Shown: piece by piece, positions 1,577 to 37,724 of the stretch
Position numbering within the stretch: position 1 is the stretch's first letter
How the letters are laid out: every line of letters starts with the position of its first letter
Source: Patescibacteria group bacterium
GTDB lineage: Bacteria > Patescibacteriota > Microgenomatia > UBA1400 > PJMF01
Reading direction: 5' to 3'
DNA length: 59,743 nucleotides
Assembly: GCA_045541795.1 (NCBI GenBank)
Contig: JAZQJV010000017.1
Coordinates: 1 to 59,743, forward strand
Notes under the pieces: generated by a model
The model's database searches: none
What the model saw: only the letters and a program-made list of their open reading frames with translations
What the model was told of the DNA's origin: nothing
Made by a program: the position numbers and the translations under genes

Positions 1577-1780
1577 TTAAGCTTCGCGTTTGAGCACCGG
1601 CATACCGGTACGCACGGTTTCTACCACTTTGTAACCTTCTGGCACAGTCTCGAGGCTGCCATCACGGACGTCTTTGGCGAAGTAGTAAATGCGTTGTTTA
1701 CGGCCGTTTTTGAGGGTGACCTCTTTGGTGTGTAAGAAATATTCAATTCCTTTTTTGTTGGTGTAGCTAAATGCTGACAT
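1577..1780 (-). CDS. Small hypothetical protein (67 aa from the internal ATG)
   Basis: The ORF continues to 1813, but AAGGTG precedes the ATG at 1780 (MSAFSYTNKKGIEYFLH...). The composition looks protein-like. Confidence 0.55.
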   Translation of the reverse strand: MSAFSYTNKKGIEYFLHTKEVTLKNGRKQRIYYFAKDVRDGSLETVPEGYKVVETVRTGMPVLKREA

Positions 1781-1833
1781 TTCACCTTTCTGTGAGCGGA
1801 GTATCCCACTCAATATTATTACTGTCCTCGAGT

Positions 1834-2382
1834 TTACTCCTGTGACTCCTGGTTGTCAAGAGGCAAATTGTCAGTTTCGCTGATGGAGGCTTCGGGAGGA
1901 TTGATTGTTCCGGTCAAAATTACGTTTTCACCATCACGAATTTCGACAGTGAGTGGCAAAGAATTGACTGAGAGTGAGTGAGAAGCGATCAGTCCACCTT
2001 TGGTGTCAGCGAGCGTACCGATGTCTTGAGCTTGGTCGCTGTCTGCTGTCTTGATGAAGACGTGATACTGCGTGCCAGCGGTGGTGTCGAGGTTGGCGTT
2101 GACAGAAAACAGCACTCGATCATCGACGATCTGATAACGGATCTCGCCGACAGCATTGCGACCGGCAGCATCGAGGTTGACGGCTTGATAGTCACCAAGG
2201 CCTTGAGCGAGGCGATCGAGAGCGGCGCGGTCATCATTGGTCATGGGATTGATCGGAGCGCTAGAAGCGACTTCTGGCATATTGACTTCGGTCAGTTCCC
2301 GAGAACGGTACCAACGCATACCGAGGAAAGCGACCAGAGCAAGTGCCGCTATAGGCAATATTATCGGTAAATATTTTTTCAT
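1834..2382 (-). CDS. Membrane-anchored or secreted hypothetical protein
   Basis: N-terminal hydrophobic helix (MKKYLPIILPIAALALVAFLG) followed by a soluble domain. An SD-like GAAAGG lies upstream. Confidence 0.7.
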   Translation of the reverse strand: MKKYLPIILPIAALALVAFLGMRWYRSRELTEVNMPEVASSAPINPMTNDDRAALDRLAQGLGDYQAVNLDAAGRNAVGEIRYQIVDDRVLFSVNANLDTTAGTQYHVFIKTADSDQAQDIGTLADTKGGLIASHSLSVNSLPLTVEIRDGENVILTGTINPPEASISETDNLPLDNQESQE

Positions 2383-2501
2383 AACTAAATTTACCTTTCT
2401 GTATCATTTTTCTTGTTAATACAGCTTATTTTCCACATTTTGGACAATTTGTCAAGAGGCAATTTGTGGCTTTTTGGGGTAAAAAGTCAATTTAGCTTGA
2501 T

Positions 2502-3215
2502 TTAGGGGCAAAAAAATTGCTCTATGGTGATTTGAGACTGCTGGACGCCGCGCTCGGTCTGCAGATATTTAATAGTACTCTCAAGCATTAGCGGGCTGCC
2601 ACACAAGTAATAATGGGCGGCAGGATGCAGATCCTCTTTTGTTAATATATCGGCTACGTAACCAGTGGCGAGTTGCCAGTTTTCGTCAGGCTTGGAGACC
2701 GCGGGCAGAAAGCGGAAATTGGGGAAGTGATTTTGGATGGCTTGGATTTCGTTTAGCCAAAAAAACTCGCTGGCATAGCTGACATTCCAGATCAGGGTGA
2801 TCGGACGAGTGGTCTGGCGGATCTGGAGTTGGTCGGTGATGATCGCCAGGAAAGGAGAGATGCCCGAGCCGGTGGCGAGTAAATAAATCGGGCCGTCGCC
2901 ATGTGTTGGCTCGACTGTAAGCTTGCCTAGAGGACCTAAACAGTTAATTTGGTCGCCTAGATGAAGGTTTTTGATATAGTTGACTCCTAGACCATTGGGA
3001 GCGGTATCGAGGATGATTTCAAAACTAGTATCGACGTCTGGCCGGTCACACATGGAATAGGCACGCATTTTGCCCTTCCCCACCGCGATCATCATATATT
3101 GGCCGGCTTGATTGTGGAGGTGCGTCCCTTCGAGGTCAAAGCGGTACCAAAAGTAACGTTCATTAAGTTGGTTAAAATTGCTCAGTTTTGCAGTCATTTT
3201 TTGTGGTATAATCAT
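2502..3215 (-). CDS. FAD/NAD(P)-binding oxidoreductase of the ferredoxin-NADP reductase / PyrK-like family
   Basis: RAYSM (RxYS FAD motif) and LLATGSGISPF (GxGxxP NAD(P) motif). TGCTATAAT ends 8 nt before the ATG. Confidence 0.8.
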   Translation of the reverse strand: MIIPQKMTAKLSNFNQLNERYFWYRFDLEGTHLHNQAGQYMMIAVGKGKMRAYSMCDRPDVDTSFEIILDTAPNGLGVNYIKNLHLGDQINCLGPLGKLTVEPTHGDGPIYLLATGSGISPFLAIITDQLQIRQTTRPITLIWNVSYASEFFWLNEIQAIQNHFPNFRFLPAVSKPDENWQLATGYVADILTKEDLHPAAHYYLCGSPLMLESTIKYLQTERGVQQSQITIEQFFCP

Positions 3216-3261
3216 AGAACTTGATTATAGCACAGATCTTTGAAAAATGTGTGAGTAATTT

Positions 3262-3338
3262 GGCCGCATGGCTCAGTTGGTTAGAGCGTTCGATTCACAT
3301 TCGAGAGGTCCTAGGTTCGAATCCTAGTGCGGCCACCA
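3262..3338 (+). tRNA. tRNA-Val (anticodon CAC), CCA encoded
   Basis: Manual cloverleaf: acceptor GGCCGCA/TGCGGCC, D arm GCTC..GAGC, anticodon loop TTCACAT, T arm CCTAG GTTCGAATC CTAGT, 3' ACCA. Confidence 0.9.
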
Positions 3339-3390
3339 CATTTTTTCCAGTTTTTTAGTCAAATGATTTTTGTGTGAGTGTTTGACGGAT

Positions 3391-3470
3391 GTTAAACAAA
3401 TGTTGAACAAATGTTTAACACGTACATCTGGAAAAAGTGAACAAACGAAGAACAAATGTGGACAAATGGT
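3391..3470 (+). promoter_or_regulatory. Array of AACAAATG-type direct repeats upstream of the giant surface-protein promoter
   Basis: AACAAATGTT at 3395 and 3406, AACAAACG at 3440, AACAAATGTG at 3451, GACAAATGGT at 3461. The first pair sits inside the inverted repeat GTTAAACA (3391-3398) / TGTTTAAC (3412-3419). Confidence 0.55.
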
Positions 3471-3487
3471 GACGTAAAAATTGCTGC

Positions 3488-3516
3488 TTGACAAAAATGT
3501 TTGCGTGTGATATACT
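3488..3516 (+). promoter_or_regulatory. Sigma-70-type promoter for the surface-protein gene
   Basis: TTGACA (3488-3493), 17 nt spacer, TGaTATACT (-10 at 3511-3516). Confidence 0.6.
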
Positions 3517-3612
3517 TGAGTTTGAAGTTAGAAAAACGCTTCGCGACTAGGCGAAAAAAAGCGGGAAAACGGCCGCATTTTTTTTCTTAGAGCGCACATA
3601 AGTAAAAAGTAC

Positions 3613-6600
3613 ATGAGAGGACAGATCATGTCTAAAGGGAAATTATCTAGTGGAGATTTGGCGACGTGGGGATTTTTGGTGATGGCAGTGGTGACGCTGC
3701 TGAGCACAGGAATGGTAGCGAAGGTGGTGTTCCCTGATGGTGTGATCACTGACGTGCGAGCAGATAATACTATCAGTGAGACTAGTTTTACTGGCACGCT
3801 GGGAGAAATCAATGAATTTTTGGCTGACGTGAGAACTAATACTGACGGGAAGAAAATTTCCGAGCTGGAATTAGCAGACAATGTAACGATTAACCTGACT
3901 GTCAGCGACGTAGTGTTAACTTCACAAATTAATAGTATCCTGACGGAGCGGTTTGGTGGCAGCTTGGAGGCTTTAAACAAGATTAAAACTGTCAATATTG
4001 CCTTTTCCCAGGGTGTCCATTATGATGCTGATATTACTAGCAGCTATCGCGAGGATAGCGTGAGTGTAACCGCTAATTATTCCGGGGCAGTGATTTATCT
4101 TTTTGTGCCGACGCCGGATAAAGCTTTGGCTACACAAATGCAGACTTACGTGAATCAAGCAGACAATTGGTCACAGGCAACGGCTGTACAGATCCGAGCC
4201 AATGATACTACTGGTCGCTATAATATGGCCAAAAATGATGATACTTATATCATGAATGCTGTTACCAATGATGATGCAAGCGCTTGTAGCGTATCACTGG
4301 CTGGTGCGATTGCTGATTACCAGAAAGTGACGAGTGCAATTACAGATAAAAAATTTGTTTTGTCGCTAGCTGGTACCAAATGTAGTGATGACGGTGTGGC
4401 GTCAATTTCTACGGATGCACAGCTAAATTCTTTGGCCTTGAACGTTTTTGAAAACACTTCTGCTGACAAAGTGAAGGAAATTGCCCAAAGTGCCGCGAGT
4501 GCAAATCAAGCGCTTTATGTGGGCGCTGGTGATTACACTGTACAGCTGGCTGCTGGCGACAGTGCGGCTACTATTAGTAATGTCTATGCGGATGTGGAAG
4601 AGTTAACTGTGACTGAAATGGCTGATTTGGCGAGCGCCATCGGTGTGAGCGCAACGGCTGTGGAGACGACAGAAACTGGTTTCCAATCTGACTACAAGGT
4701 TTCAGTAGATGGTGAGACGGTCAGTGTAGAAATTTTGAATGAAAACGTCAACGTGGCTGATGTGGCTGCCAATCTGGGTACGCTCACCAGCGTATCGCTG
4801 AAAAAAGGCACACAGACCGTGACGGTGTCTACTGACGAGACTGATAAAGTGGCGGCGGTGACAATCGGTGGCGTGCCGACGTATTACGGGAGTTTTGCGG
4901 AGGCATTGATAGCGATTGACGGTGTCGCCACTAGTACGGTGACTTTGCTTAACAATACCACATTTGCTGGGAGTTGGGTTTTTGATAGCGGCAGGATTGC
5001 TGTTGATTTGAATGGTAAAACACTGACTTACACTGGTAATTCGTCTACTGTTTTCCAAGTTAATCAAGGGGCACATTTGTCATTTGTCAATAATGATTCT
5101 ACTGATGGTAGTTTGGGTAAGATTGTGGATACAAACGATAATCATCCAAGCGTGTTCTTCCGCATTTATGGGAGCAGCGTTAGCACAGATGCTAATGTCT
5201 CATCTTTGAGTTTTGGCGCTAATACACAAGTGGAATCATATGCCGGTTGGATTGTAGTGGTAGGTCCAGTAGAGAAAAAGGCGTATGGCGCAGTGGTGAA
5301 TATTGATGGTGAGTTGATCGGTAAAGGAGTTAATTGTGGTGTCATCACCATACATGGCAATATCAGTGACAGTAGCAGTGCCATTGGTACAGCAGCAGAC
5401 GGAAGTGACACTACTGCAGCTAAGGTTTATATTAATGATGGAGCGGTATTGACAAATAATGCTGGCTCTGGTTCGGTAGCTGCTTATAGTGCTGGTTCTG
5501 GCTTGTGGATATTTGGTGATGCCAGTTTGCATGGTTATGATAACGCTTTTGAAATTCGATCCGGTACGGCTAGAATTAATGGCGGTAATTTCATAGCTGA
5601 TGCCATCCCCGCTTTTTCCACTCTTAACAATAGCGGCACAACTTCGCAGGGCGCGGCTATCGCGATCGCTCAATATGGTAATTCACCTATCGACGTAACC
5701 GTAACTGGCGGCGTGTTTAGTGCCTATACACCGGTGTACGAAAGCGACCCGAACGGCACGACTACTGTGACTGCAGAAAACACCAAACTGGCTTTTAAGG
5801 GTGGCTATTATGAAGTCATCAATGGTGGTGATAAAAGTGTTTATAGTCAGGATTTAACTAAATTCCTCACCGGCGGCACTTACTCCGTCGCTCCAAACGT
5901 CGCTTACCTTGCTGATAGTTATATCAATCACGATAACGGCGACGGCACGTACACGGTGATGCATGCTTACGACTCGGTATCAGCGGCGATCACCGCTCTC
6001 GCTGGTGATAGTAGTGAAGACTTGCCAGCGGTAAAAGTAGTCACGAGTGACACTGACAGCGCAGAAAACAACGCCCTGGTGGCAAAAGACAGCGGCTATT
6101 ACCGTGTGGAAGCGGCAGAAGCCGGCATGAGTGCGGCGCTGGCGATGGCTAATAGTTTGATCGAAACCAATCCGGTAGATGTACTCAAGGCGACAATTGC
6201 TTATGCTCAGCTCGATGGCAACATCGTCAATGTGCAAGCAGCTTCAGATGACAACAGCAAGCGGGAGATTAATGTCTCCATCAGCAATGAAAGCACACAA
6301 AGCTTGCCGAGTGTGAGTGATGCCTGGCACATCGCTGCTACTGATCAGATCAATGAGGCTGTCAGCACGATCAGCTTTGAAAAGAATAGTGAAGCGGTGA
6401 CGGTTTACCTGGACAAAAAGAAAGTAGTGACGCAGATGAGCGAGCCGACTTTGACGACGGCTTTGGCGCAATACCAGGCAGCAGCCACGAGTGAAGCGCA
6501 AGTGGCGGTGGACTATTACCGCACGCAGCCAAACGACATGAACGGCAACACGATCACTCATTTCGTCTCACTGAAGGCTGACGGCGACAAGATCAAAGCC

Positions 6601-24358: not shown

Positions 24359-24457
24359 ATTTACTCCTCAAGCGGATTGTATCAGGAACTGGCCAAAAAT
24401 CAAGTCTTGATTTTTGTGACAAGTGTGGTATAATATTGATCCTTAACAAGTTGAGAT

Positions 24458-24534
24458 GGCTCGGTGGTGTAGCTGGTTAACATAATTCCCTGTCACGGAA
24501 TAGATCGCCGGTTCGAGTCCGGTCCGAGTCGCCA
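24458..24534 (+). tRNA. tRNA-Asp (anticodon GTC), CCA encoded
   Basis: Acceptor GGCTCGG/CCGAGTC (one G-U pair), anticodon stem ATTCC/GGAAT with loop CTGTCAC, T arm GCCGG TTCGAGT CCGGT. TGTGGTATAAT lies upstream (-10 at 24429-24434). Confidence 0.9.
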
Positions 24535-24573: not shown

Positions 24574-24602
24574 TTGACAAATATGGCAAAGTGTGGTATA
24601 AT
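24574..24602 (+). promoter_or_regulatory. Consensus promoter for gene 24660
   Basis: TTGACA (24574-24579), 17 nt spacer, TGGTATAAT (-10 at 24597-24602). Confidence 0.7.
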
Positions 24603-24659
24603 ATATACTTATTGACTGTTCTGTAACATAAAACACTAAACATGAATGGAGGAATTAAA

Positions 24660-25889: not shown

Positions 25890-28286
25890 TTAATTAGCAT
25901 AGAATGTTTTATTATTGAGTTTTTCTGTTAATTGATACTTGTCCACCAGATTTGTTAATGCTTTAATCGTTTCTTGTCCCATCTTTTTTTCCAATGCGCG
26001 TCTATCCCTATATTCCGTTGATAATACATTTGCCACCTTCGTTAAAGCCTGGCGACCTTTAGAGTATGAAAAAATACTTGTAGATTTTTGAATTATTTTA
26101 TCAAGATTTTCAAATAACAGTATATTTTTATTGCAAAGTATTAGTAATTCAATATTATTGATTCCATCACTATTCAATATGTTGACTAAATTGGAGGAAT
26201 TCGTAATATTTCTAATCATTTGTGACAATCTACCCGCATTTTGGTTGCTCGTATTTTTTTCAAGACAGAGATAAGAAAATAGATATGCATTATCAAAATT
26301 TATGTGATTCCAGTATCGTTCCAATCGGTCAATTAACAATTGTTGATGAGTAATTCTTATGGTAGCCATCCATGGGCTGTATTTTCTTGCAAATACTTGA
26401 GTGAGGAATCTCAATTCACTAAAAGTGTAGACTTGGGAATGAATAATATTGGTTAAATCTATGTAGTCTGTAGAAAGGTATTGCTTCACTGATAATTCTT
26501 CTATTAGTTCTTGATATTGCCCAAATTCATATTTAATAGATTTTATATTACTATTTATCTTTTCGAGTAGACTCGTTCCACTTTCTATGACAGCAAAATC
26601 ATTAGGAAATAAATTTTTGTACAAGACGAGAGATAAAAGCTGATCCGATTGGAAAATTTGAGGTTTGCCAAAGTAAATTAGTTCATAACCTAAGAATTTA
26701 TTCCTATTGACTTCAATTGTATGATTAATACTTCTTTTGTAAACTAAATATTCATTTAATATATGAGTTAGTAATCTAGGATCTGATATGTGTTTGGCAA
26801 TTACGTTTACTAAACCGTGGGAAAATTCTTGGTCTAATTTATTTTCTATCAATAATGACGTTAAAGTTTCTTGACTATTTAGTGAAGATGAATATGGAAC
26901 GACTGGAATTACAAAATCAAAGAATTTTGTTTTTTGTTCCCAGGTTGATAAGATATTATCTCCTATCACATATATAAATTTTAAACGATCATTTAGTTGT
27001 TTATTGAGTAATGAATTTAATCCCCGCAACCTTTCAAAAATGTACAGACTGCGAAAGCGATCGAGATCTTCAAAAACATAAATATAGCATTTGGTATGTT
27101 TAATCATATCTAGAATATGTTGTTGATTTTGACTTAAAATATTGTCTTGAGTATTGTTTTTACTCTCAAATTTAATTTCTGTATTTATAAGGTTTAATTT
27201 AACCTGAGCAGTATTGATACCGTGAACAAGCAAATTATGAAAGATAAAACGCAATGACAAATAAAATAGAGGCACCAGCCAAATATATATCCAGAAGCCA
27301 CTATAGTTGCCTATTAGCGTTGGCAATAAATTCATCTCAGAATGTGGTGCTGTTTGTTCAAAAACATCTGGTTTGATTAGTAGAATTATTGCTGTTATTC
27401 TCTCAATTACTATTGAGATATGTTTGTAAAATAGTTTGGAAAGATATATTGTTGGAAAAGATAAAACTAAGGCCATTAATGTGCTACACTTTTTTCTCTT
27501 TCGCTCATCTATTTTTTCTTTTGCAAAACTATGTATGTTTTTTACAATCGCCAGCTCAAGTTCATGTGTTTTCTTTTCATCATACTCTTTGTTATCATCT
27601 GAAATGTGGAAGAAATCGCTCAAAGATATGGAAAGGCAATAGTTTTTCTTAATTGCAAAAAATTTCAGCACTTTGTTCATTCTGTAATGATTTTCAAAGA
27701 ATGAACGAACTTGAGTAGATTTGCCAGCTCCAAACTTTCCAGTGATAGCAATATCATGCACATCTTTACTTCTTATAGCGTATTTTAATGCTGGCTCAAT
27801 TCCTGTCCATGCATTTTTACGCGGGCCTAAAAATTGGAATTTGCTTCTAAATCTTGGATGCACAAATTTACGAGAGAATAAATCTACTATTTTAGAAAAT
27901 AAGTTTTTGATTTGTTTGAAAGTGTATAATATCGTGCCTTTAATAGAGATGTCTAACGTTGTCGCAAAAATAGCCAAGGATCCAGCAACGGTACAACTAA
28001 CTATCAACAATTCCAATAGGTCCAGCAGCTTAAACAGATATGGGAAATCATGTCCAAATATTGTATCATTTAATATATTTTTTGATATTCTAAATAGGTT
28101 ATTTAGTACAAACAGAATTATGGAGAAAAGAGAAATAATAATGATAATACGCCATCTTGTTTTTTCTTTGTGCAGAAGAAGACGTGGGATGCTTGGTTCC
28201 ATCTTATTTATAACTCTCTCAATCATTTCTTCAAGAAATGTCTCTAATTTTTGCAATTTAGTAGTTATATAATTAATTTCTTTCAT
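25890..28286 (-). CDS. KAP/YobI-like P-loop NTPase with transmembrane segments
   Basis: Walker A ITGKFGAGKST and Walker B-type YVFEDLDRF (the KAP DDLDR pattern) are separated by hydrophobic helices. Further N-terminal TM helices are present. Coding-strand TGATATAAT lies about 10 nt before the ATG. The gene is very AT-rich. Confidence 0.75.
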   Translation of the reverse strand: MKEINYITTKLQKLETFLEEMIERVINKMEPSIPRLLLHKEKTRWRIIIIISLFSIILFVLNNLFRISKNILNDTIFGHDFPYLFKLLDLLELLIVSCTVAGSLAIFATTLDISIKGTILYTFKQIKNLFSKIVDLFSRKFVHPRFRSKFQFLGPRKNAWTGIEPALKYAIRSKDVHDIAITGKFGAGKSTQVRSFFENHYRMNKVLKFFAIKKNYCLSISLSDFFHISDDNKEYDEKKTHELELAIVKNIHSFAKEKIDERKRKKCSTLMALVLSFPTIYLSKLFYKHISIVIERITAIILLIKPDVFEQTAPHSEMNLLPTLIGNYSGFWIYIWLVPLFYLSLRFIFHNLLVHGINTAQVKLNLINTEIKFESKNNTQDNILSQNQQHILDMIKHTKCYIYVFEDLDRFRSLYIFERLRGLNSLLNKQLNDRLKFIYVIGDNILSTWEQKTKFFDFVIPVVPYSSSLNSQETLTSLLIENKLDQEFSHGLVNVIAKHISDPRLLTHILNEYLVYKRSINHTIEVNRNKFLGYELIYFGKPQIFQSDQLLSLVLYKNLFPNDFAVIESGTSLLEKINSNIKSIKYEFGQYQELIEELSVKQYLSTDYIDLTNIIHSQVYTFSELRFLTQVFARKYSPWMATIRITHQQLLIDRLERYWNHINFDNAYLFSYLCLEKNTSNQNAGRLSQMIRNITNSSNLVNILNSDGINNIELLILCNKNILLFENLDKIIQKSTSIFSYSKGRQALTKVANVLSTEYRDRRALEKKMGQETIKALTNLVDKYQLTEKLNNKTFYAN

Positions 28287-28765
28287 AAGATATTGTATTA
28301 TATCATTAAATTACACTCAAACTGATTGAAATGCGTCAATTACCATAAATTAGTGCCAAATTAGATTTATTATGTAACCGTTAAGTAGTCTGTTTTTGTG
28401 TACATCTGATTTTTGTCAAGCATTGTGTATGATTTATGATCACCGGTGTTCTTTTCGAGTGCTTGAGACTTGAAAGTAATTTATAAAAGAAAGTGAGTGC
28501 TCAAATTAGTACGTAAAAGGCATTATTAAAGGGTTTCTTGAGTACGAAACAGTTAAAACATCCCAGCATTAACAATTGCAGTGGTGATTATGACATCTTG
28601 TGTTATCCTGGACATACAAAACAAGTGAGCCTTTCTACTCGGCAAACTGTAAATTTTATGCAAACTCAGTTTAAAACGAGTTAACTCGATTGTTTTGTAA
28701 ACCTAAATTGAACAATTTTTGTGCTCAAGTGTAAGGTATGTTCGTTTATCCTACAATTCTAATTT

Positions 28766-29818
28766 TCGGAATTGTCCCTTGACACATTGTAATATTGTGA
28801 TATAATAACACACATTAACGACTATTCCCCTCTGGAAGATTAGAAAGAATGTGTGAATTATATTCAGTTTCTTAAAAAGTTTCCTACCGAGGAAAAGATT
28901 ATAGAGTATTTTGTTAAGATCCGTTATCAAAAGGGAATCAAATGTTATCATTGCGAATCTGAAAAAGTCTACCAGCTTAAAGTCAGCCCAAAGTCTTTTA
29001 CTGTAACTCTTGTCTTAATACCTTCTCTGTTTTCAAAGATACAATTTTTGAACATTCTTCAACTGATTTGAGAATTTGGTTCTACACTATCAATCAAATC
29101 TTAACGGCTAAAAAAGGCATTTCTGCTATGCAACTTCAACGTCAGACAGGCGTTACTTATAAAACTGCTTGGAGAATGCTCAAACAAATTAGAGAAGTCA
29201 TGGGAAATGATTGCGGTAAAGAAATGTTTGAAGCTATTGTTGAAATTGACGAAACTTATGTTGGTGGTAAGCCTCGCCCTGGAGATAAAAAAGAGCACAA
29301 AAGAGGTCGAGGAAGTAACAAAACTCCAGTTGTTGGGCTTAAAGAAAGAACGTCAAGTAAGGTAGTAGCACAAGTTGCCATGCCAAACAAAGAAGGAAAG
29401 AAGTTATCAGGAAAACAACTTTTGTCCATTATTGATAGAGTGGTTAAAGATGATAGTTTGATTATTTCAGATGAGTTTAGAAGCTATGGGATTTTAGACA
29501 AGAAAGATAGTAATTATTTCCACTTTACTGTTAATCACTCTCTTGGAGAGTATTCTAATAAAAGAGGAGTCCATACTAACGGTATTGAGAGTTTCTGGGC
29601 TTTGGTAAAGCGTGGGATTTATGGGAGTTATCATCACGTTTCAGTGAAATATTTACAAAGCTATATTAATGAGTTTAGTTTTAGACAAAACAATAAGGAT
29701 AATCCGATGATTTTTGAAAAACTGTTGGAAAGATGTATTACGAGTTGAAAATCTCGTTTTCGTTTTGTCAACTAATTAAGACCATGACTGAATTAGAAAA
29801 ATAAGGATTAGTTAGTTT
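28766..29818 (+). mobile_element. IS1595-family insertion sequence, copy A
   Basis: Left terminal repeat TCGGAATTGTCCCTT (28766-28780), an internal promoter TGTGATATAAT, an ISXO2-like transposase, and a degenerate right end AAGGATTAGTTAG (29803-29815) that resembles the right end of copy B. Confidence 0.75.
28853..29748 (+). pseudogene. IS1595-family transposase (zinc ribbon + DDE), reading frame broken near 28990
   Basis: Two ORFs (28853-29071, 29068-29748). A frame switch at CCCAAAG (28987-28993) restores ...SPKVFYCNSCLNTFSVFKDTIFEHSSTDLRIWFY, parallel to copy B. DDE region: EIDETYVGG...HTNGIESFW...YLQSYINEFSFRQNN. Confidence 0.75.
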
Positions 29819-29864
29819 CTTATAGACCTTGACAAACATTAGCATTTATTATAAACATTAGAAT

Positions 29865-30875
29865 ATGGAAAAGAACATAAAATATGCAGAATTTTGCACT
29901 GGGATAGGTGGTTTTCGGATTGGTATTGAATCATCACTATTCCCAACCAAGTGCGTTTATAAAAACGAGATAAACGACAATTGTGAGAAAACATATCTAT
30001 TGAATTTTGGAGACACATTTGACTCAAAAAATATTTTTGACATAGACCCTCATATATTACCAAATTTTGATATGCTTTGTGCGGGTTTTCCCTGCCAACC
30101 ATTTTCTATTGCTGGAAAACAACAAGGATTTGATGATTCAAGAGGACAAATAATCTTCAAGATTGTAGAAATAATAAAAATAAGAAAGCCAAACATAGTT
30201 TTTTTAGAAAACGTTGCTAATCTTGCAAGACATAACAAAGGAGAAACCTTAAAAACTATTTTAGACGCTATAATACAGAATGGTTATGCGGTATATTACA
30301 AGATATTAAATGCCAAAGAATTTGGAGTTCCGCAAAGTAGACCTAGGCTTTTTATTATTGCGATTAATGAAAAATTTAGTAGCAAGAGTTTTTCTTTTCC
30401 AAATAATAATGGTAGAAAGAAGATTCTCAGAGATATTATTGACACAAAGGATATGTCAATGCCTGTTTCCGCTAGATGGCTTGAATATATTGATCTTTAC
30501 ACTGGGAAAAAACAAGTAAACGAAATGAGTTTTGTCCCTCCGAAAACAAGATTAAAACTTGAAAGAATATCTCATGGTTGTAATCTTAATGATTGTGTAC
30601 TTCAAATGAGATCGAGTGGAATTAGAGCTTATTCCTTAGACGAACAGTTCCCTACTTTTGCTGTTAGTATTAGCGGAGGAGGAGCCATGATTCCAGTTTT
30701 ATCAAAATATAAAAGACACCTCAGCGTACTTGAAATGAAAAGGCTAATGGGGTTTCCAGATAGTTTTAAATTTAACATAAATCGTACAGATCAGATTAAA
30801 CAACTAGCAAATGCAGTATGTCCACCAATTATAACTGAAATCTTTAATAGAATTGTTGAAACATATTATTTGTGA
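29865..30875 (+). CDS. DNA (cytosine-5) methyltransferase
   Basis: FCTGIGGF (motif I), GFPCQPFS (motif IV), ENV (VI), QSRPR (VIII), NAVCPP (X). Confidence 0.9.
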   Translation: MEKNIKYAEFCTGIGGFRIGIESSLFPTKCVYKNEINDNCEKTYLLNFGDTFDSKNIFDIDPHILPNFDMLCAGFPCQPFSIAGKQQGFDDSRGQIIFKIVEIIKIRKPNIVFLENVANLARHNKGETLKTILDAIIQNGYAVYYKILNAKEFGVPQSRPRLFIIAINEKFSSKSFSFPNNNGRKKILRDIIDTKDMSMPVSARWLEYIDLYTGKKQVNEMSFVPPKTRLKLERISHGCNLNDCVLQMRSSGIRAYSLDEQFPTFAVSISGGGAMIPVLSKYKRHLSVLEMKRLMGFPDSFKFNINRTDQIKQLANAVCPPIITEIFNRIVETYYL

Positions 30876-31609
30876 AGTTTTGTTATCCTGTCCTGTATGT
30901 CTTCTTTAGTCGCGATGACAATTCTTTTATTTTCAGGATGAACTAAAGCACAATGGTGAGAACATCGTTTTTTGTCGCAAAGGAAGCACATTTGTCGCTT
31001 ACACTTATTGCAATAGTGACACAGTGCTTGTATGTTTGAAACTTTGTTTTTGCCACCCCTATCGATAGGAATTCTGTGATCAAATTCTAATTTAACTCTG
31101 TCTTTTGAGAAAGCATGGACTGGTATTTCTTTACTTTCTTTCAAGAGCGAGCCGCATATATTACACCTATTGTTTTGCCGTCGTAAAACAATGCGTTTTT
31201 CGTTACTTGAAATTTGAACTCTTTGATTCTTGATGTTGTTTTGAAATAGCTTTTCATGGTCACTTTGATCTAAAACATATTGTCTATTACCATCCATGTT
31301 TGCTGAGTGAACACATGAAAACCCTTCTTCTGTCCACAATTCGCTAAATGGTTTATTTGCATCACCGTATCTATCTTGTATCAAATCTGAATCCATTTTG
31401 TTTATCAATATTTTTTTGATTGTTGCCAACCTATTATTTGCTCCAGCTAAATCTGCTTCTGAGGCAATTCCGTAATGAATGAGAAGTAATAGTCCAGCAA
31501 TTGTTCGTTTTTTTGTTAGCCATATCTTTCTTTGATCATTGAATACAATTTCGTACCCATTTCTATCTGACGCTTTTTGTATCTTTTTAATATCTTTTAG
31601 ATTGGTCAT
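30866..31609 (-). CDS. Putative type II restriction endonuclease with a C-terminal HNH domain
   Basis: CNICG...EFDHRIPIDRGGKNKVSNIQALCHYCNKCK is an HNH/Cys-box pattern. ATG 31609 lies 1 nt after the C-protein stop. The gene is convergent with the methyltransferase and overlaps it by 10 bp. Confidence 0.65.
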   Translation of the reverse strand: MTNLKDIKKIQKASDRNGYEIVFNDQRKIWLTKKRTIAGLLLLIHYGIASEADLAGANNRLATIKKILINKMDSDLIQDRYGDANKPFSELWTEEGFSCVHSANMDGNRQYVLDQSDHEKLFQNNIKNQRVQISSNEKRIVLRRQNNRCNICGSLLKESKEIPVHAFSKDRVKLEFDHRIPIDRGGKNKVSNIQALCHYCNKCKRQMCFLCDKKRCSHHCALVHPENKRIVIATKEDIQDRITKLHK

Positions 31610-31610
31610 A

Positions 31611-31823
31611 TTACATTGACTCCCAAAATTCAATCCAATCTATATGCAAGCCGCATATAATCTTTTCTAGATTAACTATACTAATGTTTCTACGTCCGCT
31701 CTCCACAGAAGCAAAGTATGTCCTATCCATATCAATAGACAAAGCAAACTTCTCTTGAGAAATTCCAAGTTTATTTCTGAACAACTTGATTCGATTGCCA
31801 ACCCTAACCTTTATATCTTCCAT
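31611..31823 (-). CDS. XRE-family HTH protein (controller / C-protein of the R-M unit)
   Basis: 70 aa. VGNRIKLFRNKLGISQEKFALSIDMDRTYFASVESGRRNISIVNLEKI is a Cro/C1-type HTH. It sits immediately upstream of the endonuclease gene. Confidence 0.8.
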   Translation of the reverse strand: MEDIKVRVGNRIKLFRNKLGISQEKFALSIDMDRTYFASVESGRRNISIVNLEKIICGLHIDWIEFWESM

Positions 31824-31966
31824 GAGAAAAGTTTAACGAAATGAAGAATAAAAGACAACGGTTTATAAGTCACAATTCAATATTGATGTATTAAGATATA
31901 GTTGACATTTTTATGAAAAGATGATAATTAGAACTTAATCCATTAAACAGCATAAGAAAGGACAAA

Positions 31967-32401
31967 ATGGGTATTGAAACGTGCATCTCAATAGCATCAT
32001 TAGGAATATCTTGCTATTCGTTATACAAAGCGATAAAATCACAAAAGCTCCAAGATCAGGTAAATTCTCTCGAACTAAAACTTAAAGAACTTGAGTTGGA
32101 AGAAAAGACCACAAAAGAATCATTACTGGATGTTGGGGCGGTAAAAAGTGGTACTAATTGCAGGTTGGTCTTTTCTAATATCGGCAACACAACTATATAC
32201 AATATAAATGCAAAAATAGATGAAGAATCAAGAATTCATTTTCAAGGCTGCAAACTCCCCTATGGGGAACTTCGACAAGGAGATAGTTTTGAAGAAAGCT
32301 TTCCAATCACAATAGCATCTTCTCCTGTTTTTGAGATAACAGTAACCTGGCTAGATGATGAAGGAAATGAGAAACAAGATGTAAAAACTCTGAGCATTTA
32401 A
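31967..32401 (+). CDS. Hypothetical protein: N-terminal TM helix, coiled coil, beta-rich C-domain
   Basis: ISIASLGISCYSLY helix, LELKLKELELEEK coiled segment. TTGACA at 31903-31908 lies upstream, and AAAGGA precedes the ATG. Confidence 0.6.
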   Translation: MGIETCISIASLGISCYSLYKAIKSQKLQDQVNSLELKLKELELEEKTTKESLLDVGAVKSGTNCRLVFSNIGNTTIYNINAKIDEESRIHFQGCKLPYGELRQGDSFEESFPITIASSPVFEITVTWLDDEGNEKQDVKTLSI

Positions 32402-32474
32402 TTAATCCTATATCTTAATTGCATCAATTTAGTGATGCTCATAGAGGGATAATTATGTAATTAATTAAAAAACT

Positions 32475-33291
32475 ATGATAACGTCACAGAATAATTTCAC
32501 TAAGAATGATTATGAATTGGTAAGAATGATATTACGATATCGCTTGCGTAGCAATGATGAGCTTACAGTACAAGACTGGTCAAGAATTGGTGTAAACGCT
32601 ATCTCAACCACGTTATCGAATATAAAAAGTGCAAAAGACAATAATGGTCGAGATATTTCCGGTGGCCCTGATTTCATATCTCAATGTAACTCAGTAACCA
32701 TTGGTATTGAGCATTTTAGATACGACAGTTACAGACACAATCGCAAAGGAAGCCATCTGGAAAATCAATTGAACAATATTTGTAATAAAATCTGCGATCA
32801 AAATCATTGTATATGTGATATGACCATAGATAACAGTGCTAGTGGAGAAAATCTGTATAAATCGTTCATGAAAGCATTGAAACGCCATGCAAAAAAGATT
32901 CCCAAATATTTAGAAAATTTAAAACAAATTAGACCAAATTCAAAGAAATACGAAATATGGTTCTTTACAGAAGATGCAACACCCAAAGGAAATAATTATG
33001 CAATAAATGATCATACAAGAAGTTGTATATTGCCTCTTAATAAAGAGCTTATTGATTTTTTAGAAGAACAAGATGAAAAAAATTGCTGGTTTAATATTTG
33101 GTTATTATGAATGTGCATGCGAGCAAAACAAAATTATTGTGATGAAAAATGATCAGGTAACACGAAAAATGATTGAAAATCAAAAGTTTTACAATCTTAA
33201 TTCTGATCTGATACAATCACCAGATCTTCATATTAATAAAGAAACAAGTTTAAAACTTAGGCACTTTTATGAAAAAATTCACGGTGGATAA
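32475..33291 (+). pseudogene. Hypothetical protein with a PD-ExK-like motif, split by a frameshift in an A7 run
   Basis: ORFs 32475-33110 and 33073-33291 join if the A7 run at 33076-33082 is read as A6 (...EEQDEKIAGLIFGYYECA...). GGPDF...VTIGIEHF resembles the RPDF...LWLEHF segment of the helicase at 51559. Confidence 0.5.
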
Positions 33292-33340
33292 ACTAAGGAT
33301 ACTTTAAAATACCCCATAATAAATTTAACTACAATGCTTA

Positions 33341-33355
33341 AAGGGATAATTCCGA
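33341..33355 (-). repeat. Solo IS1595-type terminal inverted repeat
   Basis: AAGGGATAATTCCGA is identical to the 15-nt outer end of copy B (37710-37724). The reverse complement of 33331-33355 matches the copy A left end 28766-28790 at 21/25 positions. Confidence 0.7.
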
Positions 33356-33427
33356 AGAAAAATAAAATGGCAACGCACCAACGTCGAGACAAATTATTGT
33401 GCATTAAATAGACAAGTAATAATACTA

Positions 33428-34398
33428 TCACTGGCAAGAGCGTGCGATAGTATTGCCCCCCCAAATATGTCCGTGATAATTAAGCACGATTATCCAAAAA
33501 CCTGCAATAGTGATTAATAATAAATACGGATAAGAAAACCATTCTTGTTGACGTAATGTTTTGCGAGCACTAAGTTTCTTAAATGATTCAAAAACAAAAA
33601 CAAGGCTGGCGATTGTCAAAATAAAATGCCAAGTTTCATTAGTAATCAAGGAAATTCGCCAGCTATCAAAGAAGGCAATCCGATGATTGTCAAAAAGTGA
33701 ATCGAGACTAGGTTCCGTCTCACCAAAACTTGCAAGCACTGATTTGGTTTGCATCAGATCATGTCGTAAATCAAAAAGAATGTAAGTAGATAAAGGTATT
33801 AGAATCGCAAATACACACAAAAGATGCCGCCAATTTTTACGTTTGACAATTTGGCATAAACACATCAGGCCCAAAATGACAGTCATGGGTACGCCAAAAG
33901 CGAGTTGAAACTGAATCATGACTCCACAAAGTAAAATGGTAATTATTAAATCTTTAATTTTTTGCCTTTGACAATATTGACCAACGAAATAAATCAGCGG
34001 AATGATCAAAAAATTGGCTAAAACTGTATGTGTGTAGCCAGCAGGATAAAAACAAGTCAAGGTGACAATTAAGGATGTAGCAACCAAAGCAACTTTATGG
34101 TTAAACATTTCCCGAGCGCAATAGTAAAAGCCACCAAGAAACAACCAATAAACGAGTAACCAAAAGACCGCTACCACGACTGGATTACCATGTCCAATTC
34201 TGCCCCCAATTAAAGAAATTTTGTGAGTATCGATCATATCCTGCCAAAGTAAAAAATCTCGGGCAATGTCGGTATCGTAGTAGATATCGTTTTTGAAAAA
34301 TGGGCAACTCCTAAAGCTAAGCAAATGCCAATTACTGTCAAACAACATCCCTCCCACAAATGCCACTTACGACCACAGAGAGTTTTAGTCGTTAACAT
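33428..34398 (-). pseudogene. Polytopic membrane protein, ArnT/GT-C-like, frameshifted near its 5' end
   Basis: The main ORF 33428-34366 is multi-TM. An upstream piece (MLTTKTLCGRKWHLWEGCCLTVIGICLALGVAHF) lies in another frame and joins at the T5/A5 runs at 34290-34300. Confidence 0.5.
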
Positions 34399-34684
34399 TA
34401 TTCGCTTTCTAAGGGAAAATTTCTTACATATCCGAGAACTTTTCCCATCGTGTAAGTTCCGGCAAGAAACAATACGTTCCAGAGAAAAGTTCTCACGATT
34501 ACGTATTGCCACTGCTTGCCGCAGTGGCTAATTCTTGCCAGAACTATGGATCTAATTTTACCATAAAAGATATAATTTGTCAAAAAGACTTATAAGAAAT
34601 CATCTAAAGATTAGATTTTAAGATGAAATGGCGTCAGATATAAAGACTTGATTTTTATAAGAAAATGTGATAAAAGTGTGTGAT

Positions 34685-36493
34685 ATGATACAAAATGAAA
34701 GACAAGCTAAGTTACAAAGTTTTATTGCTCTTCAGGAAAGACTCAATTATCTCAGCGATAAAGAAATAACCTTATGGGATTTACATACAAGATTGATTGA
34801 GTCACTGGAAAGGGAAACTAACAATGATGATAAAAATATAATAAGATTGTTGCTCGACGTTTCATCTATTATGTTGACTACTGACAAAAATAAACCATTT
34901 CAACCATTGTGCGTCAAAGCTGATGGCCGAAGAAGCGCAGAGCCATCAGATTTTACCGAACAAGAGTTGGATTATTTTGCTTTGATTTATGGATACATAG
35001 AGAATAGAATGCTAAAAGCTAGAGTATTAGACATCCTGTGGTATAGAAAGCACAAAGGCATAACAATTAATGAAGTTAAAAAATACTTAATATGCCCATA
35101 TATTCACCTATCATTTAATAAAGATTACCCAAATAATATCAACTTCATAAATCGCGGTTTAGATTTGGCTCTAAAAGTTAATGATAAAGACGCCGTAGAA
35201 GGTTTTAAGAATAGAGTAATCTCATTTTTAAACTCATTGCCAAAAGATGAAATATGTCTAGATAATATATTTAAACCTTATAAGGTGGTCAACTTATTTC
35301 ATGAAAAGAAAATTAGATTGACTGACAAAGAAAAAGAGCAGTTCATAAATGCAATGATGAAATGCGCCGAACATTTGGCAGCAATGAGCGAATATTGGCA
35401 GGCTATAGATTATTATCAAGAAGCCATCTATTGGCAAGACAAATGTGCTAATAAAATGGAAATACCTAAGTTATATGCACGAATTGCTAATTTATATCTT
35501 TCGTATGGTGATTCATGTCAAAACCAGCAATGTGCCGGGCGCTATTACGAGAAAGCTTTATCTGTAATTAATAGAAAAATAGCAAAAAAATCCCGTATGA
35601 ACTATTTTTCAGATGAAGCTATCCATAACGTAAAATTAAAGCTTTTAACAGCTAGAAAATCTTCTTTAAAAGAATTGCATGAGGTTAAAGGCCAAGTTGA
35701 CATCACCAGTGCAGTAGAGAGTGTGCAAAAGACAATTCAGGATCAAGACTTGCTCACCTTAATGAAACAATTGGTCATCTTACCAAGTCAGATATCGTTC
35801 AATTCTATATTAGAAGAGGCGACAAAGACAGTCCAAAGTTCATTAACTTTGGGAGCGTTTGAAACAGAAACTTTGGCAGATGATGGAAGAAAAATTGATA
35901 CGACAGCCAAGAGCACAGATAAAGCAATATTTAATATCGATACACATATTTACAAAGTTATGCTATGGCAGTATTCGCTAATGGTGGATATGATAGTACA
36001 CGTATATGTTTTACCAATTTTAAAGTACATAAGAGGAAAACATAATTTAGGATTTAATGACTTTTTAAGAATCGTTCATAGCTCATCAATTATTCCTAAT
36101 GATAGGAAAAATGTTGTTGCTTATGGTTTATATGAAGGTTACAAATGCAATTTCTTAGTTTCTTTACACTTACTTGTGCCACAAATTGAACATCTTGTAC
36201 GAGTAAGTTTAAAGAAAGCAAATGCACTTACTATTCATGTGGATGAAAATGGAATTGAAACAGAAGTAAGTTTAAATTCCCTAGTAGAAATGAGCGAATT
36301 CAAAAAACTTTTCGGTGATGATTTGGCATTTGAAATAAATGCTTTACTTTGTGAACCCAGTGGTTTAAATCTAAGAAATAAAGTTTCGCATGGATTAATT
36401 TCTGAAGACGGTATGAATAGTTCTGACAGTGTTTACCTGTGGTGGTTTTGCTACAAATTGGCTTCTTTATCAAGAATCGACGGAAATGATTAA
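34685..36493 (+). CDS. Large alpha-helical protein with a C-terminal HEPN-type RNxxxH motif (DUF4209/Abi_C-like)
   Basis: About 602 aa. The C-terminal LNLRNKVSHGLISEDG fits the Rx4-6H motif of HEPN RNases. ATG 34685 follows TGTGATA-type -10 sequences. Confidence 0.65.
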   Translation: MIQNERQAKLQSFIALQERLNYLSDKEITLWDLHTRLIESLERETNNDDKNIIRLLLDVSSIMLTTDKNKPFQPLCVKADGRRSAEPSDFTEQELDYFALIYGYIENRMLKARVLDILWYRKHKGITINEVKKYLICPYIHLSFNKDYPNNINFINRGLDLALKVNDKDAVEGFKNRVISFLNSLPKDEICLDNIFKPYKVVNLFHEKKIRLTDKEKEQFINAMMKCAEHLAAMSEYWQAIDYYQEAIYWQDKCANKMEIPKLYARIANLYLSYGDSCQNQQCAGRYYEKALSVINRKIAKKSRMNYFSDEAIHNVKLKLLTARKSSLKELHEVKGQVDITSAVESVQKTIQDQDLLTLMKQLVILPSQISFNSILEEATKTVQSSLTLGAFETETLADDGRKIDTTAKSTDKAIFNIDTHIYKVMLWQYSLMVDMIVHVYVLPILKYIRGKHNLGFNDFLRIVHSSSIIPNDRKNVVAYGLYEGYKCNFLVSLHLLVPQIEHLVRVSLKKANALTIHVDENGIETEVSLNSLVEMSEFKKLFGDDLAFEINALLCEPSGLNLRNKVSHGLISEDGMNSSDSVYLWWFCYKLASLSRIDGND

Positions 36494-36607
36494 ATCGCAA
36501 GAAAAGTTAAGTTCCCATATCTTATTATAAAAGGATAACCATCGTTAAAAATACGCACTGTGATAAAAGTGTAACAATTTATTGAATATGGTTCATTATC
36601 TTATAAT

Positions 36608-37724
36608 ATAAATTACCAATCATTTAGTCTATGAACATGGCTTTTCCAAGATCAATAAATATTTGTGGCGTCAGATATATAAGTGCCTTCGAGATTTAAC
36701 ACGCATCTGCCGATTAGCTCCTCAAAAATTATCGGATTGTCTTTATTATTCTGTCTAAAACAAAATTCATTAACATAATTCTGTAAATATTTAACAGAGA
36801 CATGATGATAAGTTCCGTAAACACCACGTTTAAGTAAAGCCCAGAAACTCTCAATACCATTTGTATGAATTCCATTTCCTTTAGAAAACTCTTTAAGAGA
36901 ATGATTAACTACAAAGTGATAATACTCACTCATATTTTCACGATTGACTTTTCTGTCTAAAATTCCGTAAGACTTAAAGTCATCAGTAACAACCACAGAC
37001 TTAGTTTTAACAACTTTATCTAATAGTTCAAGAAGTTGTTTACCAGATAACTTTTTGCCTTGTTTGTTTGGCATGGCTACTTTGGCAACCACCTTACTTG
37101 AAGTACGCTCCTTAATTCCTACCACTGGAGTTTTTCTTGTACCACGACTACGTTTATGTTCCTGGCTATCTCCCAGTCGTGGTTTACCTCCAACGTAAGT
37201 TTCATCAACTTCCACAATCGCTTCAAAAAGCTGAGTACTTTTATCATTTCCCATCGCTTGACGAATTTGTTTTAAAATCCTCCAAGCAGTTTTGTAAGAT
37301 ACTCCAGTATCACGTTGGAGTTGTTTAGCACTTACACCTTTTTAGCATTAAGGAAGATGAAAATCACATAAAACCAAACTTTTAAAGAAGTTGAAGATTT
37401 TTCAAAGATCGTATTCTTGAAAATTGAGAAGTGATTATCACAGTTATTACAAATTAGTTTCTTGGGAGTAGTATGACAGCGATAAACATTTTGACTATGG
37501 CAATGGGGACAGTGTAAATTGTCTTGGAAGCGAATTTTGATAAAGTAATCCATGACATCTCCATCAGTTGGAAACTGTTCTTGAAACTCACGGTAGTTCA
37601 CTTATGTCTTTACTAACTGGACAAATACTTCGTTAATATGCTGTAATATATCATAAATATACAAATTTGTCAAGTAGTAAAATATTATGTCACAATGCTA
37701 CTGCCCGTGAAGGGATAATTCCGA
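36608..37724 (-). mobile_element. IS1595-family insertion sequence, copy B (inverted relative to copy A)
   Basis: The outer end TCGGAATTATCCCTT appears on the plus strand as AAGGGATAATTCCGA (37710-37724). The other end AATGATTGGTAATTT (reverse complement of 36610-36624) resembles the copy A right end. Confidence 0.7.
36652..37601 (-). pseudogene. IS1595-family transposase, reading frame broken at an A5 run
   Basis: ORFs 37332-37601 (zinc ribbon CPHC...CNNC) and 36652-37254 (DDE part). The intervening GVSAKQLQRDTGVSYKTAWRILKQIRQAMG is in the -1 frame. The coding strand reads GCTAAAAAGG here versus GCTAAAAAAGG in copy A. Confidence 0.75.

Follow-up and report, generated by a model that had tools for sequence, protein, structure and literature searches.

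The subject of this analysis is a 59,743-nucleotide stretch of DNA (hereafter the window) from a Patescibacteria group bacterium, contig JAZQJV010000017.1 of assembly GCA_045541795.1, and in particular a segment of it, positions 28767-33354, that is probably one IS1595-family 'transporter IS' of 4,588 bp, that is, an insertion sequence (IS) with passenger genes. This segment, element A, holds a restriction-modification (R-M) cassette and orphan open reading frames (ORFs). Near it lies element B (36652-37723). This is probably what is left of another, different element from the same IS1595 branch, namely its left part, the right end having been lost, and the region as a whole is probably the remains of two independent insertions. 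It is read as a fossil and not as a working composite transposon because both transposase genes are frameshifted and because no cognate pair of ends is accompanied by a target duplication. The original prediction had described the interval as a composite-transposon-like defence module bounded by inverted IS1595 copies, with a third, solo end, and had suggested in addition that 28766-33355 could be an IS1595-type element with passengers. It is the latter suggestion that is supported by complete relatives, in which the right end lies 0.4-3.2 kb past the transposase gene and 6 of 28 carry R-M genes.

Terminal repeats of elements A and B

A terminal motif of 14-15 nt, (T)CGGAATTRTCCCTT, is present at exactly three sites in the window, 28767(+), 33354(-) and 37723(-), and the 15-mer TCGGAATTRTCCCTT correspondingly has three zero-mismatch sites at 28766(+), 33355(-) and 37724(-), as had been predicted. 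Only one additional site in the window, at 44129, was found with three or fewer mismatches to this 15-mer; about 2.8 such matches per window are expected by chance. When the window is scored with a position matrix derived from 18 ends of related elements, the window's own ends being excluded, the three ends score between 23.3 and 25.8 bits and the next best site scores 13.4. The true termini are the C at 28767 and the G at 33354 and at 37723, one base inside the termini first proposed, because the target duplications of the relatives abut CGG. The three ends are as follows.

28767..28806, + strand: left terminal inverted repeat (IRL) of element A; core CGGAATTGTCCCTT; 23.5 bits
33329..33354, - strand: right terminal inverted repeat (IRR) of element A, the earlier 'solo end'; core CGGAATTATCCCTT; 25.8 bits
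37683..37723, - strand: IRL of element B; core CGGAATTATCCCTT; 23.3 bits

The left and right repeats of element A (IRL_A and IRR_A) agree at 13/14 positions of the core and at 22/26 overall, a repeat finder extends the pair to 27 nt at 85%, and the predicted match of 28766-28790 to the reverse complement of 33331-33355 at 21/25 positions is reproduced. The IRL_A region also contains a perfect sigma-70-type promoter, TTGACA-16-TGnTATAAT (28779-28806), with its -35 box inside the repeat. The expectation that the ends would align beyond the 15-nt core holds weakly: over subterminal positions 15-30, IRL_A matches the 33354 end at 9/16 positions, and it matches the left repeat of element B (IRL_B) nearly as well, at 8/16, because both are left ends sharing the promoter region. 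Over the same positions in the relatives, cognate end pairs average 10.3 matches and non-cognate pairs 5.4±2.1. Given 9/16 versus 8/16, the end comparison favours the pairing of IRL_A with the 33354 end only slightly.

An 8-bp target duplication was sought around 28767-33354 and 28767-37723, and none was found: the flanking sequences are CTAATTTT to the left of 28767, AAGAAAAA to the right of 33354 and ATAAATTA to the right of 37723, and no two of them are equal. Mismatch and matrix searches for a right end adjoining the transposase gene of element A (tnpA) returned nothing above background, and a scan of viral contigs for A-type ends gave no match.

Transposase genes

Both elements contain a gene of the IS1595 family, in opposite orientations.

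28853-29748, + strand: IS1595-family transposase gene A, a pseudogene; DDE_Tnp_IS1595 (PF12762) 1.7e-37, and Zn_ribbon_IS1595
37601-36652, - strand: IS1595-family transposase gene B, a pseudogene; DDE_Tnp_IS1595 (PF12762) 7.4e-33

The zinc ribbon of A matches PF12760 with E=2.3e-5 and 24.7 bits, slightly below the cut-off of 25.4, and the four invariant cysteines of homologues that bear PF12760 align in both A and B. The transposase has 7,577 homologues, with 62-64% identity for the nearest of them, and wherever a homologue bears a name, it is that of an IS1595 family transposase; the family membership that had been proposed for both genes is therefore upheld, by PF12762 and by the names of the homologues alike. 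After repair of the frameshifts, A and B are 65% identical in amino acid sequence and 72-77% in nucleotide sequence, which makes them different IS species and not copies of one IS; of the two inverted IS1595 copies that had been described, the family and the orientation stand and the word 'copies' does not. The similarity between A and B ends at their stop codons and no right end adjoins either, so that the inner boundaries earlier placed at 29818 and 36608 are without basis.

As sequenced, neither gene retains a single intact reading frame, and the family assignment is unaffected by this. The frameshifts were placed where the alignments to intact homologues change frame. In gene A, a 1-nt deletion in the T-run at ~28990-28999 separates the part encoding the zinc ribbon (28853-28999) from that encoding the DDE domain; in gene B, a 1-nt deletion is located at AAAAAG/G, ~37338-37341. 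There is no sign of a general homopolymer error in the sequence, because the housekeeping genes of the window are intact. In either gene the frame would be regained if the ribosome slipped by -1, at TCT TTT/ACT in A (28990-28999) and at GCT AAA AAG/GTG TAA in B (37338-37345), and the AAAAAG of B is the slippery sequence of IS1 and dnaX. Such slip-compatible frameshifts are probably a trivial outcome of a deletion in a run; slippage may nevertheless permit low-level synthesis of full-length transposase.

Complete relatives of element A

DNA of related elements was drawn from a Treponema succinifaciens plasmid, from three contigs retrieved by exact protein look-up and from 80 loci of a metagenome scan. 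A motif-independent scan of 82 loci, requiring inverted-repeat matches of at least 12/16 and an exact 8-bp duplication, identified 26 complete elements, each with a perfect 8-bp duplication, and two further elements that are cut by a contig edge were found through the end motif, giving 28 in total. These relatives are 1,807-4,248 bp long, the transposase gene starting 66-1,209 bp from the left end and being followed by 390-3,197 bp of further element sequence. None of the 28 is a simple IS of ~1 kb, and none is without a passenger region. In the closer relatives, the core CGGAATTATCCCTT is mostly situated 66-130 bp upstream of the transposase start codon, or ~630-670 bp upstream where a small ORF intervenes, and an inverted copy of the core is found well downstream of the stop codon. 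Seven elements were checked by eye, and in these the perfect 8-bp direct repeats abut the C of CGG at both ends. A right end several kilobases past the transposase gene is thus the rule in this branch, and the arrangement of 28766-33355 as a passenger-carrying element fits it.

The cargo of the relatives was surveyed by family scans of 62 cargo ORFs. R-M genes are carried by 6 of the 28 relatives and toxin-antitoxin pairs by at least 4 of 28, and many of the cargo ORFs belong to no family. The defence and toxin-antitoxin cargo includes the following.

L034, 3,063 bp: N6/N4 methyltransferase (+), MamI-type restriction endonuclease (-) and helix-turn-helix (HTH) controller protein (-); target duplication TTTAAAAA
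L078: D12 methyltransferase and HaeIII-type restriction endonuclease
L089: C5 methyltransferase, 259-amino-acid ORF and Vsr
L079: 869-amino-acid Type IIG enzyme
L059 and L037: methyltransferase-nuclease fusions
L013, L015 and L054: Panacea-domain antitoxins; PemK in L015; PIN in L064

The order and orientation of the genes in L034, with the transposase gene followed by methyltransferase (M), endonuclease (R) and controller (C) genes, are those of element A, and the enzymes are unrelated. Some relatives show peculiarities of their own. On the Treponema succinifaciens plasmid pTRESU01 (L010), two tandem left ends lie 36 bp apart (5334-5383), and the 8-bp duplication fits the outer one; in this element and in L013 a small NikA/RHH-like ORF is situated between the left end and the transposase gene. 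The 4.25-kb relative L012 has as cargo several copies of a ~150-250-nt repeat with small ORFs (1760-4100) and no single large gene.

Within the IS1595 family, the ISNwi1 subgroup has the end consensus ggnnatTAT and includes passenger-carrying members of 1.75-4.75 kb. This subgroup would probably be the closest one to the window elements, whose ends CGGAATTAT and GGCAATTAT fit that consensus. The definitions of the ISNwi1, ISSod11 and ISNha5 subgroups appear in the searchable literature in passing mentions only.

The probable cargo of element A

The M, R and C genes and the orphan ORFs of element A all lie between tnpA and the 33354 end, the arrangement found in 28/28 relatives. A terminator-like hairpin is located 3′ of the transposase gene, and the features beyond it are these.

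29865..30875, + strand: C5 cytosine DNA methyltransferase (Type II); Pfam DNA_methylase PF00145 1.5e-78, TIGR00675 3.3e-81, PADLOC MTase_II 6e-97
30866..31633, - strand: HNH-type Type II restriction endonuclease; Pfam HNH 2.2e-9, PADLOC REase_II PDLC03431 (1-245 of 246) 7.7e-80
31611-31823, - strand: controller (C) protein; HTH_3, PADLOC Control_protein 4.4e-22
31843-31877: conserved 35-nt non-coding stretch upstream of the C gene, a candidate C-box operator
31967-32401, + strand: orphan ORF of 144 amino acids with an N-terminal hydrophobic helix
32475-33110, + strand: orphan ORF of 211 amino acids
33073-33291, + strand: orphan ORF of 72 amino acids

Judged by these family matches, the M, R and C genes together encode a predicted Type II R-M system with a controller protein. 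The endonuclease has 237 homologues, the best of which is 67% identical. This closest homologue is part of a cassette with the same C/R/M arrangement in L093, which comes from another organism. The element that carries the cassette there also encodes a tyrosine integrase and a Mob_Pre relaxase and lies beside a GMP synthase gene. In translated comparison the window cassette and that of L093 are 63% identical for C, 67% for R and 62-67% for M, and the 35-nt stretch at 31843-31877 is 83% identical to its non-coding counterpart in L093/L094 (L093 7712-7746). Since the carrier of the L093 cassette is an integrase/Mob_Pre element, the R-M cassette of ~2 kb has been picked up by different types of vehicle.

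The orphan ORFs match no Pfam, NCBIfam or PADLOC family. The 211-amino-acid ORF had zero homologues in a search of 5.8 billion protein clusters, and the 144-amino-acid ORF had one weak match, on a plasmid of Paenisporosarcina. Single-sequence structure models of the orphan ORFs reached pLDDT values of 33 and 56, too poor for a fold search.

The right junction of element A

Immediately beyond the right end of element A lies a decayed gene for a membrane protein.

33363..34584, - strand: GT39/PMT_2-like membrane glycosyltransferase pseudogene and conserved upstream region; frameshift and 21-amino-acid deletion

A library search with the membrane-protein fragment retrieved an intact homologue of 521 amino acids, P0242, at 68% identity, and in tblastn residues 9-363 of P0242 map to 34365-33363 with one frameshift and the deletion of 21 amino acids. 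The homology stops 8 bp from the terminus of element A, the gene being cut at codon ~363 of ~521. Residues 364-521 were found nowhere in the window by tblastn with two full-length homologues, and the missing 3′ third is not in the 480-bp non-coding stretch to the left of IRL_A (28287-28766). The 33354 end therefore marks a genuine junction, because the GT39 homology breaks off 8 bp away and the 3′ part of the gene is absent. Furthermore, because the gene is truncated at the right end, its remainder is missing and no target duplication is present, an insertion followed by loss of the DNA on the far side is suggested. Conservation extends upstream of the pseudogene, where 34546-34584 and L096 share 90% identity. 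The pseudogene has a G+C content of ~33-36%, and the contig with the 68%-identical intact homologue (L096) has one of 49% and a different gene context.

Element B

The left end and the transposase gene of element B are of the usual type. The closest relative of element B, L095, is 70% identical at the nucleotide level and again carries its cargo after the transposase gene. Searches with the matrix and with mismatches for a right end of element B gave no match to its left except IRL_A. Likewise, the ~80-bp space between the upstream region of the GT39-like pseudogene (34546-34584) and the DUF4209 gene that follows contains no right end of element B.

Alternative readings of the region

Could the outward-facing left ends at 28767 and 37723 mobilise the whole block of 8,957 bp as a composite transposon? 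The outer ends are inverted and have 13/14 of the conserved core in common, both might serve as substrates for a transposase of this branch that acts in trans, and the interior is rich in defence genes. This reading is nonetheless very improbable, since CTAATTTT and ATAAATTA form no 8-bp duplication, the flanking elements are of different IS species (only 65% identical in amino acid and 72-77% in nucleotide sequence), both transposase genes are frameshifted and element B has no inner end; moreover, the truncated host-type gene breaks at the right end of element A, which fits an independent insertion and not the capture of a block. The composite-transposon-like module of the original prediction is accordingly not supported. 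It is less probable still, to the point of being hardly credible, that the motif at 33341-33355 arose by chance or has an unrelated regulatory function and that element A is a truncated IS beside an unrelated R-M system. The sequence is AT-rich and a 15-mer with up to three mismatches is expected ~2.8 times, but the match at this position is an exact 15-mer, it is the top site of the window on a matrix made from other elements (25.8 bits, with a background best of 13.4), and it continues with a further 8/11 match beyond the core. It also sits where homology to the intact host-type gene ends, in the orientation and at the distance typical of the right ends of the relatives.

A chimeric origin has more in its favour and is still unlikely. 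In this reading, one element contributed IRL_A and tnpA, a second of the same type contributed the 33354 end and all or part of the DNA on its left side, and homologous recombination or a deletion joined the two. Flanks that do not match, together with the lost 3′ part of the interrupted gene, are what recombination between two copies of an IS classically leaves behind, and the subterminal match between the ends of element A is in the lower part of the cognate range. A chimera requires an extra element, however, of which there is no trace, and recombination between two like elements would still yield a structurally complete cargo element, so that the practical reading would hardly change. Variants of this explanation make the R-M cassette the cargo of only one parent or, less likely, ordinary DNA that was trapped; trapped host DNA would require a right end, a left end and a transposase gene, one of each, to have been lost precisely.

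The preferred explanation thus remains a single transporter IS that has since decayed. Its left repeat would hold the promoter of the transposase gene, to be followed by the transposase gene, the hairpin, the R-M cassette, two or three orphan ORFs and the right repeat. The transposase of this branch recognises the conserved CGGAATTATCCC termini, moves all that lies between them and makes an 8-bp duplication in the relatives, and it would have done the same here. As an addiction module, the R-M cassette might stabilise the DNA that carries it. The target of element A would have been the GT39-like gene, at the margin of the low-GC island with its glycosylation and defence genes, and a later IS-adjacent deletion, or recombination with another copy, could then have removed the 3′ third of the gene together with one copy of the duplication. 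Several observations count against this account. Without a target duplication, the movement of exactly this 4,588-bp unit into the site is not supported; at 4,588 bp the element would exceed every relative, the longest being 4,248 bp; and the subterminal match of IRL_A to the 33354 end (9/16) is only marginally above its match to IRL_B (8/16). The element may also be a hybrid, with the left end and transposase gene from one source and the cargo and right end from another. The collections yielded no second copy, no empty site and no close relative of the locus, and the assignment to an ISfinder subgroup, made from the end consensus, is tentative.

Genomic setting

The interval studied is the left part of a low-GC island, and element A is flanked there by two further defence-type genes.

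~25.8-53.5 kb (25800-53500): low-GC island, G+C 30-39% versus 45-53% on either side
25890-28286: YobI-like P-loop NTPase of 798 amino acids, just upstream of element A; partial match to the PADLOC Tmn defence protein
34667-36493, + strand: DUF7380/DUF4209 protein (Pfam); PADLOC PDC-S39 (candidate defence gene) 8.1e-131, full length

The DUF7380/DUF4209 gene sits between the GT39-like pseudogene and element B and may have been cargo of the latter. Because the YobI-like NTPase and the PDC-S39 match flank element A, this end of the island is a small defence cluster. The gene content given in the original prediction is confirmed: besides the C5 methyltransferase, the HNH endonuclease and the C protein there are the two orphan ORFs, the degraded gene for a membrane protein and the DUF4209/DUF7380 protein. 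The rest of the island consists mainly of glycosyltransferase and methyltransferase genes; along it, the defence genes give way to a long glycosyltransferase/methyltransferase/GtrA cluster, and a UvrD-type helicase that bears a Top1 zinc ribbon lies close to where the island ends.

The island is preceded by genes for CTP synthase, tRNA-Asp (24458-24534) and TspO, and the left flank of the window includes the housekeeping genes for PheS, a release factor and DnaJ. A search at the far end of the island for an att repeat derived from tRNA-Asp found none. An exact 16-nt repeat brackets tRNA-Asp (24421-24436 and 24589-24604) and has inverted copies at 1853-1868 and 2447-2462; a terminator element and a small dispersed repeat are the possible explanations. 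Three tRNAs were the only hits when the window was scanned with Rfam.

Close relatives of the window are scarce. A scan of the genome collection with the window CTP synthase yielded nine relatives, which include WWE3 and Dojkabacteria at ~50% identity; the best, at 83% amino acid identity, is an unclassified metagenome-assembled genome from goat jejunum (L001). On this comparison a candidate-phyla affiliation is possible. Synteny with L001 stops at tRNA-Asp, beyond which the sequences differ, leaving no empty site to compare. Exact-protein look-ups with window proteins gave no match, and the window transposase, restriction endonuclease and orphan ORF are singletons at 90% identity in the protein collections.

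Relation to known mobile elements

Members of the IS1595 family encode a transposase with a zinc finger and a DDE domain and make 8-bp duplications, and a zinc-ribbon N-terminus is found in all IS1595 groups except IS1016 (PMC8101967). ISs with passenger genes have been named 'transporter IS' (Siguier, Gagnevin & Chandler 2009), and passages in the literature on them include IS1595-family examples (PMC3129680, PMC11891212). Element A is a decayed member of this known class. Like other transporter ISs of this family, it has a transposase with a zinc ribbon and DDE_Tnp_IS1595 and terminal repeats beginning (C)GGAATTAT, its relatives make 8-bp duplications, and its passengers follow the transposase gene and precede the right end. 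The reported size range also covers its 4.6 kb. It differs from them in its frameshifted transposase and in the lack of a target duplication. A description of an IS1595-family member with a complete M/R/C cassette and orphan ORFs was not found in the searchable literature.

Furuta, Abe & Kobayashi 2010 (PMC2853133) have reported transposon-like R-M units that have inverted repeats as their boundaries and are accompanied by 8-bp target duplications, and one of these, from Neisseria gonorrhoeae, holds a transposase remnant, COG3677. Those units resemble element A in that R-M genes lie between imperfect terminal inverted repeats of ~26 nt, with a transposase or its remnant inside, and in the 8-bp duplication, seen in the cases of that paper and in the relatives of element A. 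In the present case, by contrast, both the end motif and the family of the transposase can be named and the carriers form a whole clade, whereas the copy in the window has neither the target duplication nor the support from empty sites that was available for the published units. With composite transposons such as Tn10 and Tn5, the region shares two inverted IS-related segments around genes that do not function in transposition. Unlike in those elements, the flanks in the window are different IS species (65% amino acid identity), both transposases are broken and there is no target duplication; element B has no inner end, and the 'inner end' of element A is 3.6 kb past its transposase gene. The L093 cassette, from an ENA metagenome, is alike in its three-gene arrangement and its conserved upstream non-coding stretch and unlike in its carrier, which is an integrative mobilisable element with a tyrosine recombinase and not an IS.

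Implications for the IS1595 family and its hosts

For the genome from which the window derives, what remains here is the decayed trace that two insertions have left in a variable low-GC island and not an active defence transposon. It nevertheless provides a concrete case of a complete R-M cassette riding in a very small DNA transposon, and the occurrence of the same type of cassette in an integrase-borne element implies that defence modules switch vehicles. The comparative set of 28 bounded elements, of which 26 have exact duplications and whose cargo is varied, amounts to a usable definition of this IS1595 branch, one that would help annotators to avoid calls of a solo transposase plus unrelated genes.

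Tentatively, and with somewhat less than even confidence, the IS1595 branch with the CGGAATTATCCC terminus can be proposed to be an obligate carrier of cargo that prefers addiction-type modules (R-M systems in 6/28 and toxin-antitoxin pairs in at least 4/28). If this is true, defence and addiction genes would systematically reach the genomes of gut and anaerobic bacteria, candidate-phyla lineages among them, by way of these small transposons, a route that has been described too little. The 4.6-kb element of the window would then be the largest example, and its two orphan genes could be an unknown defence/anti-defence pair.

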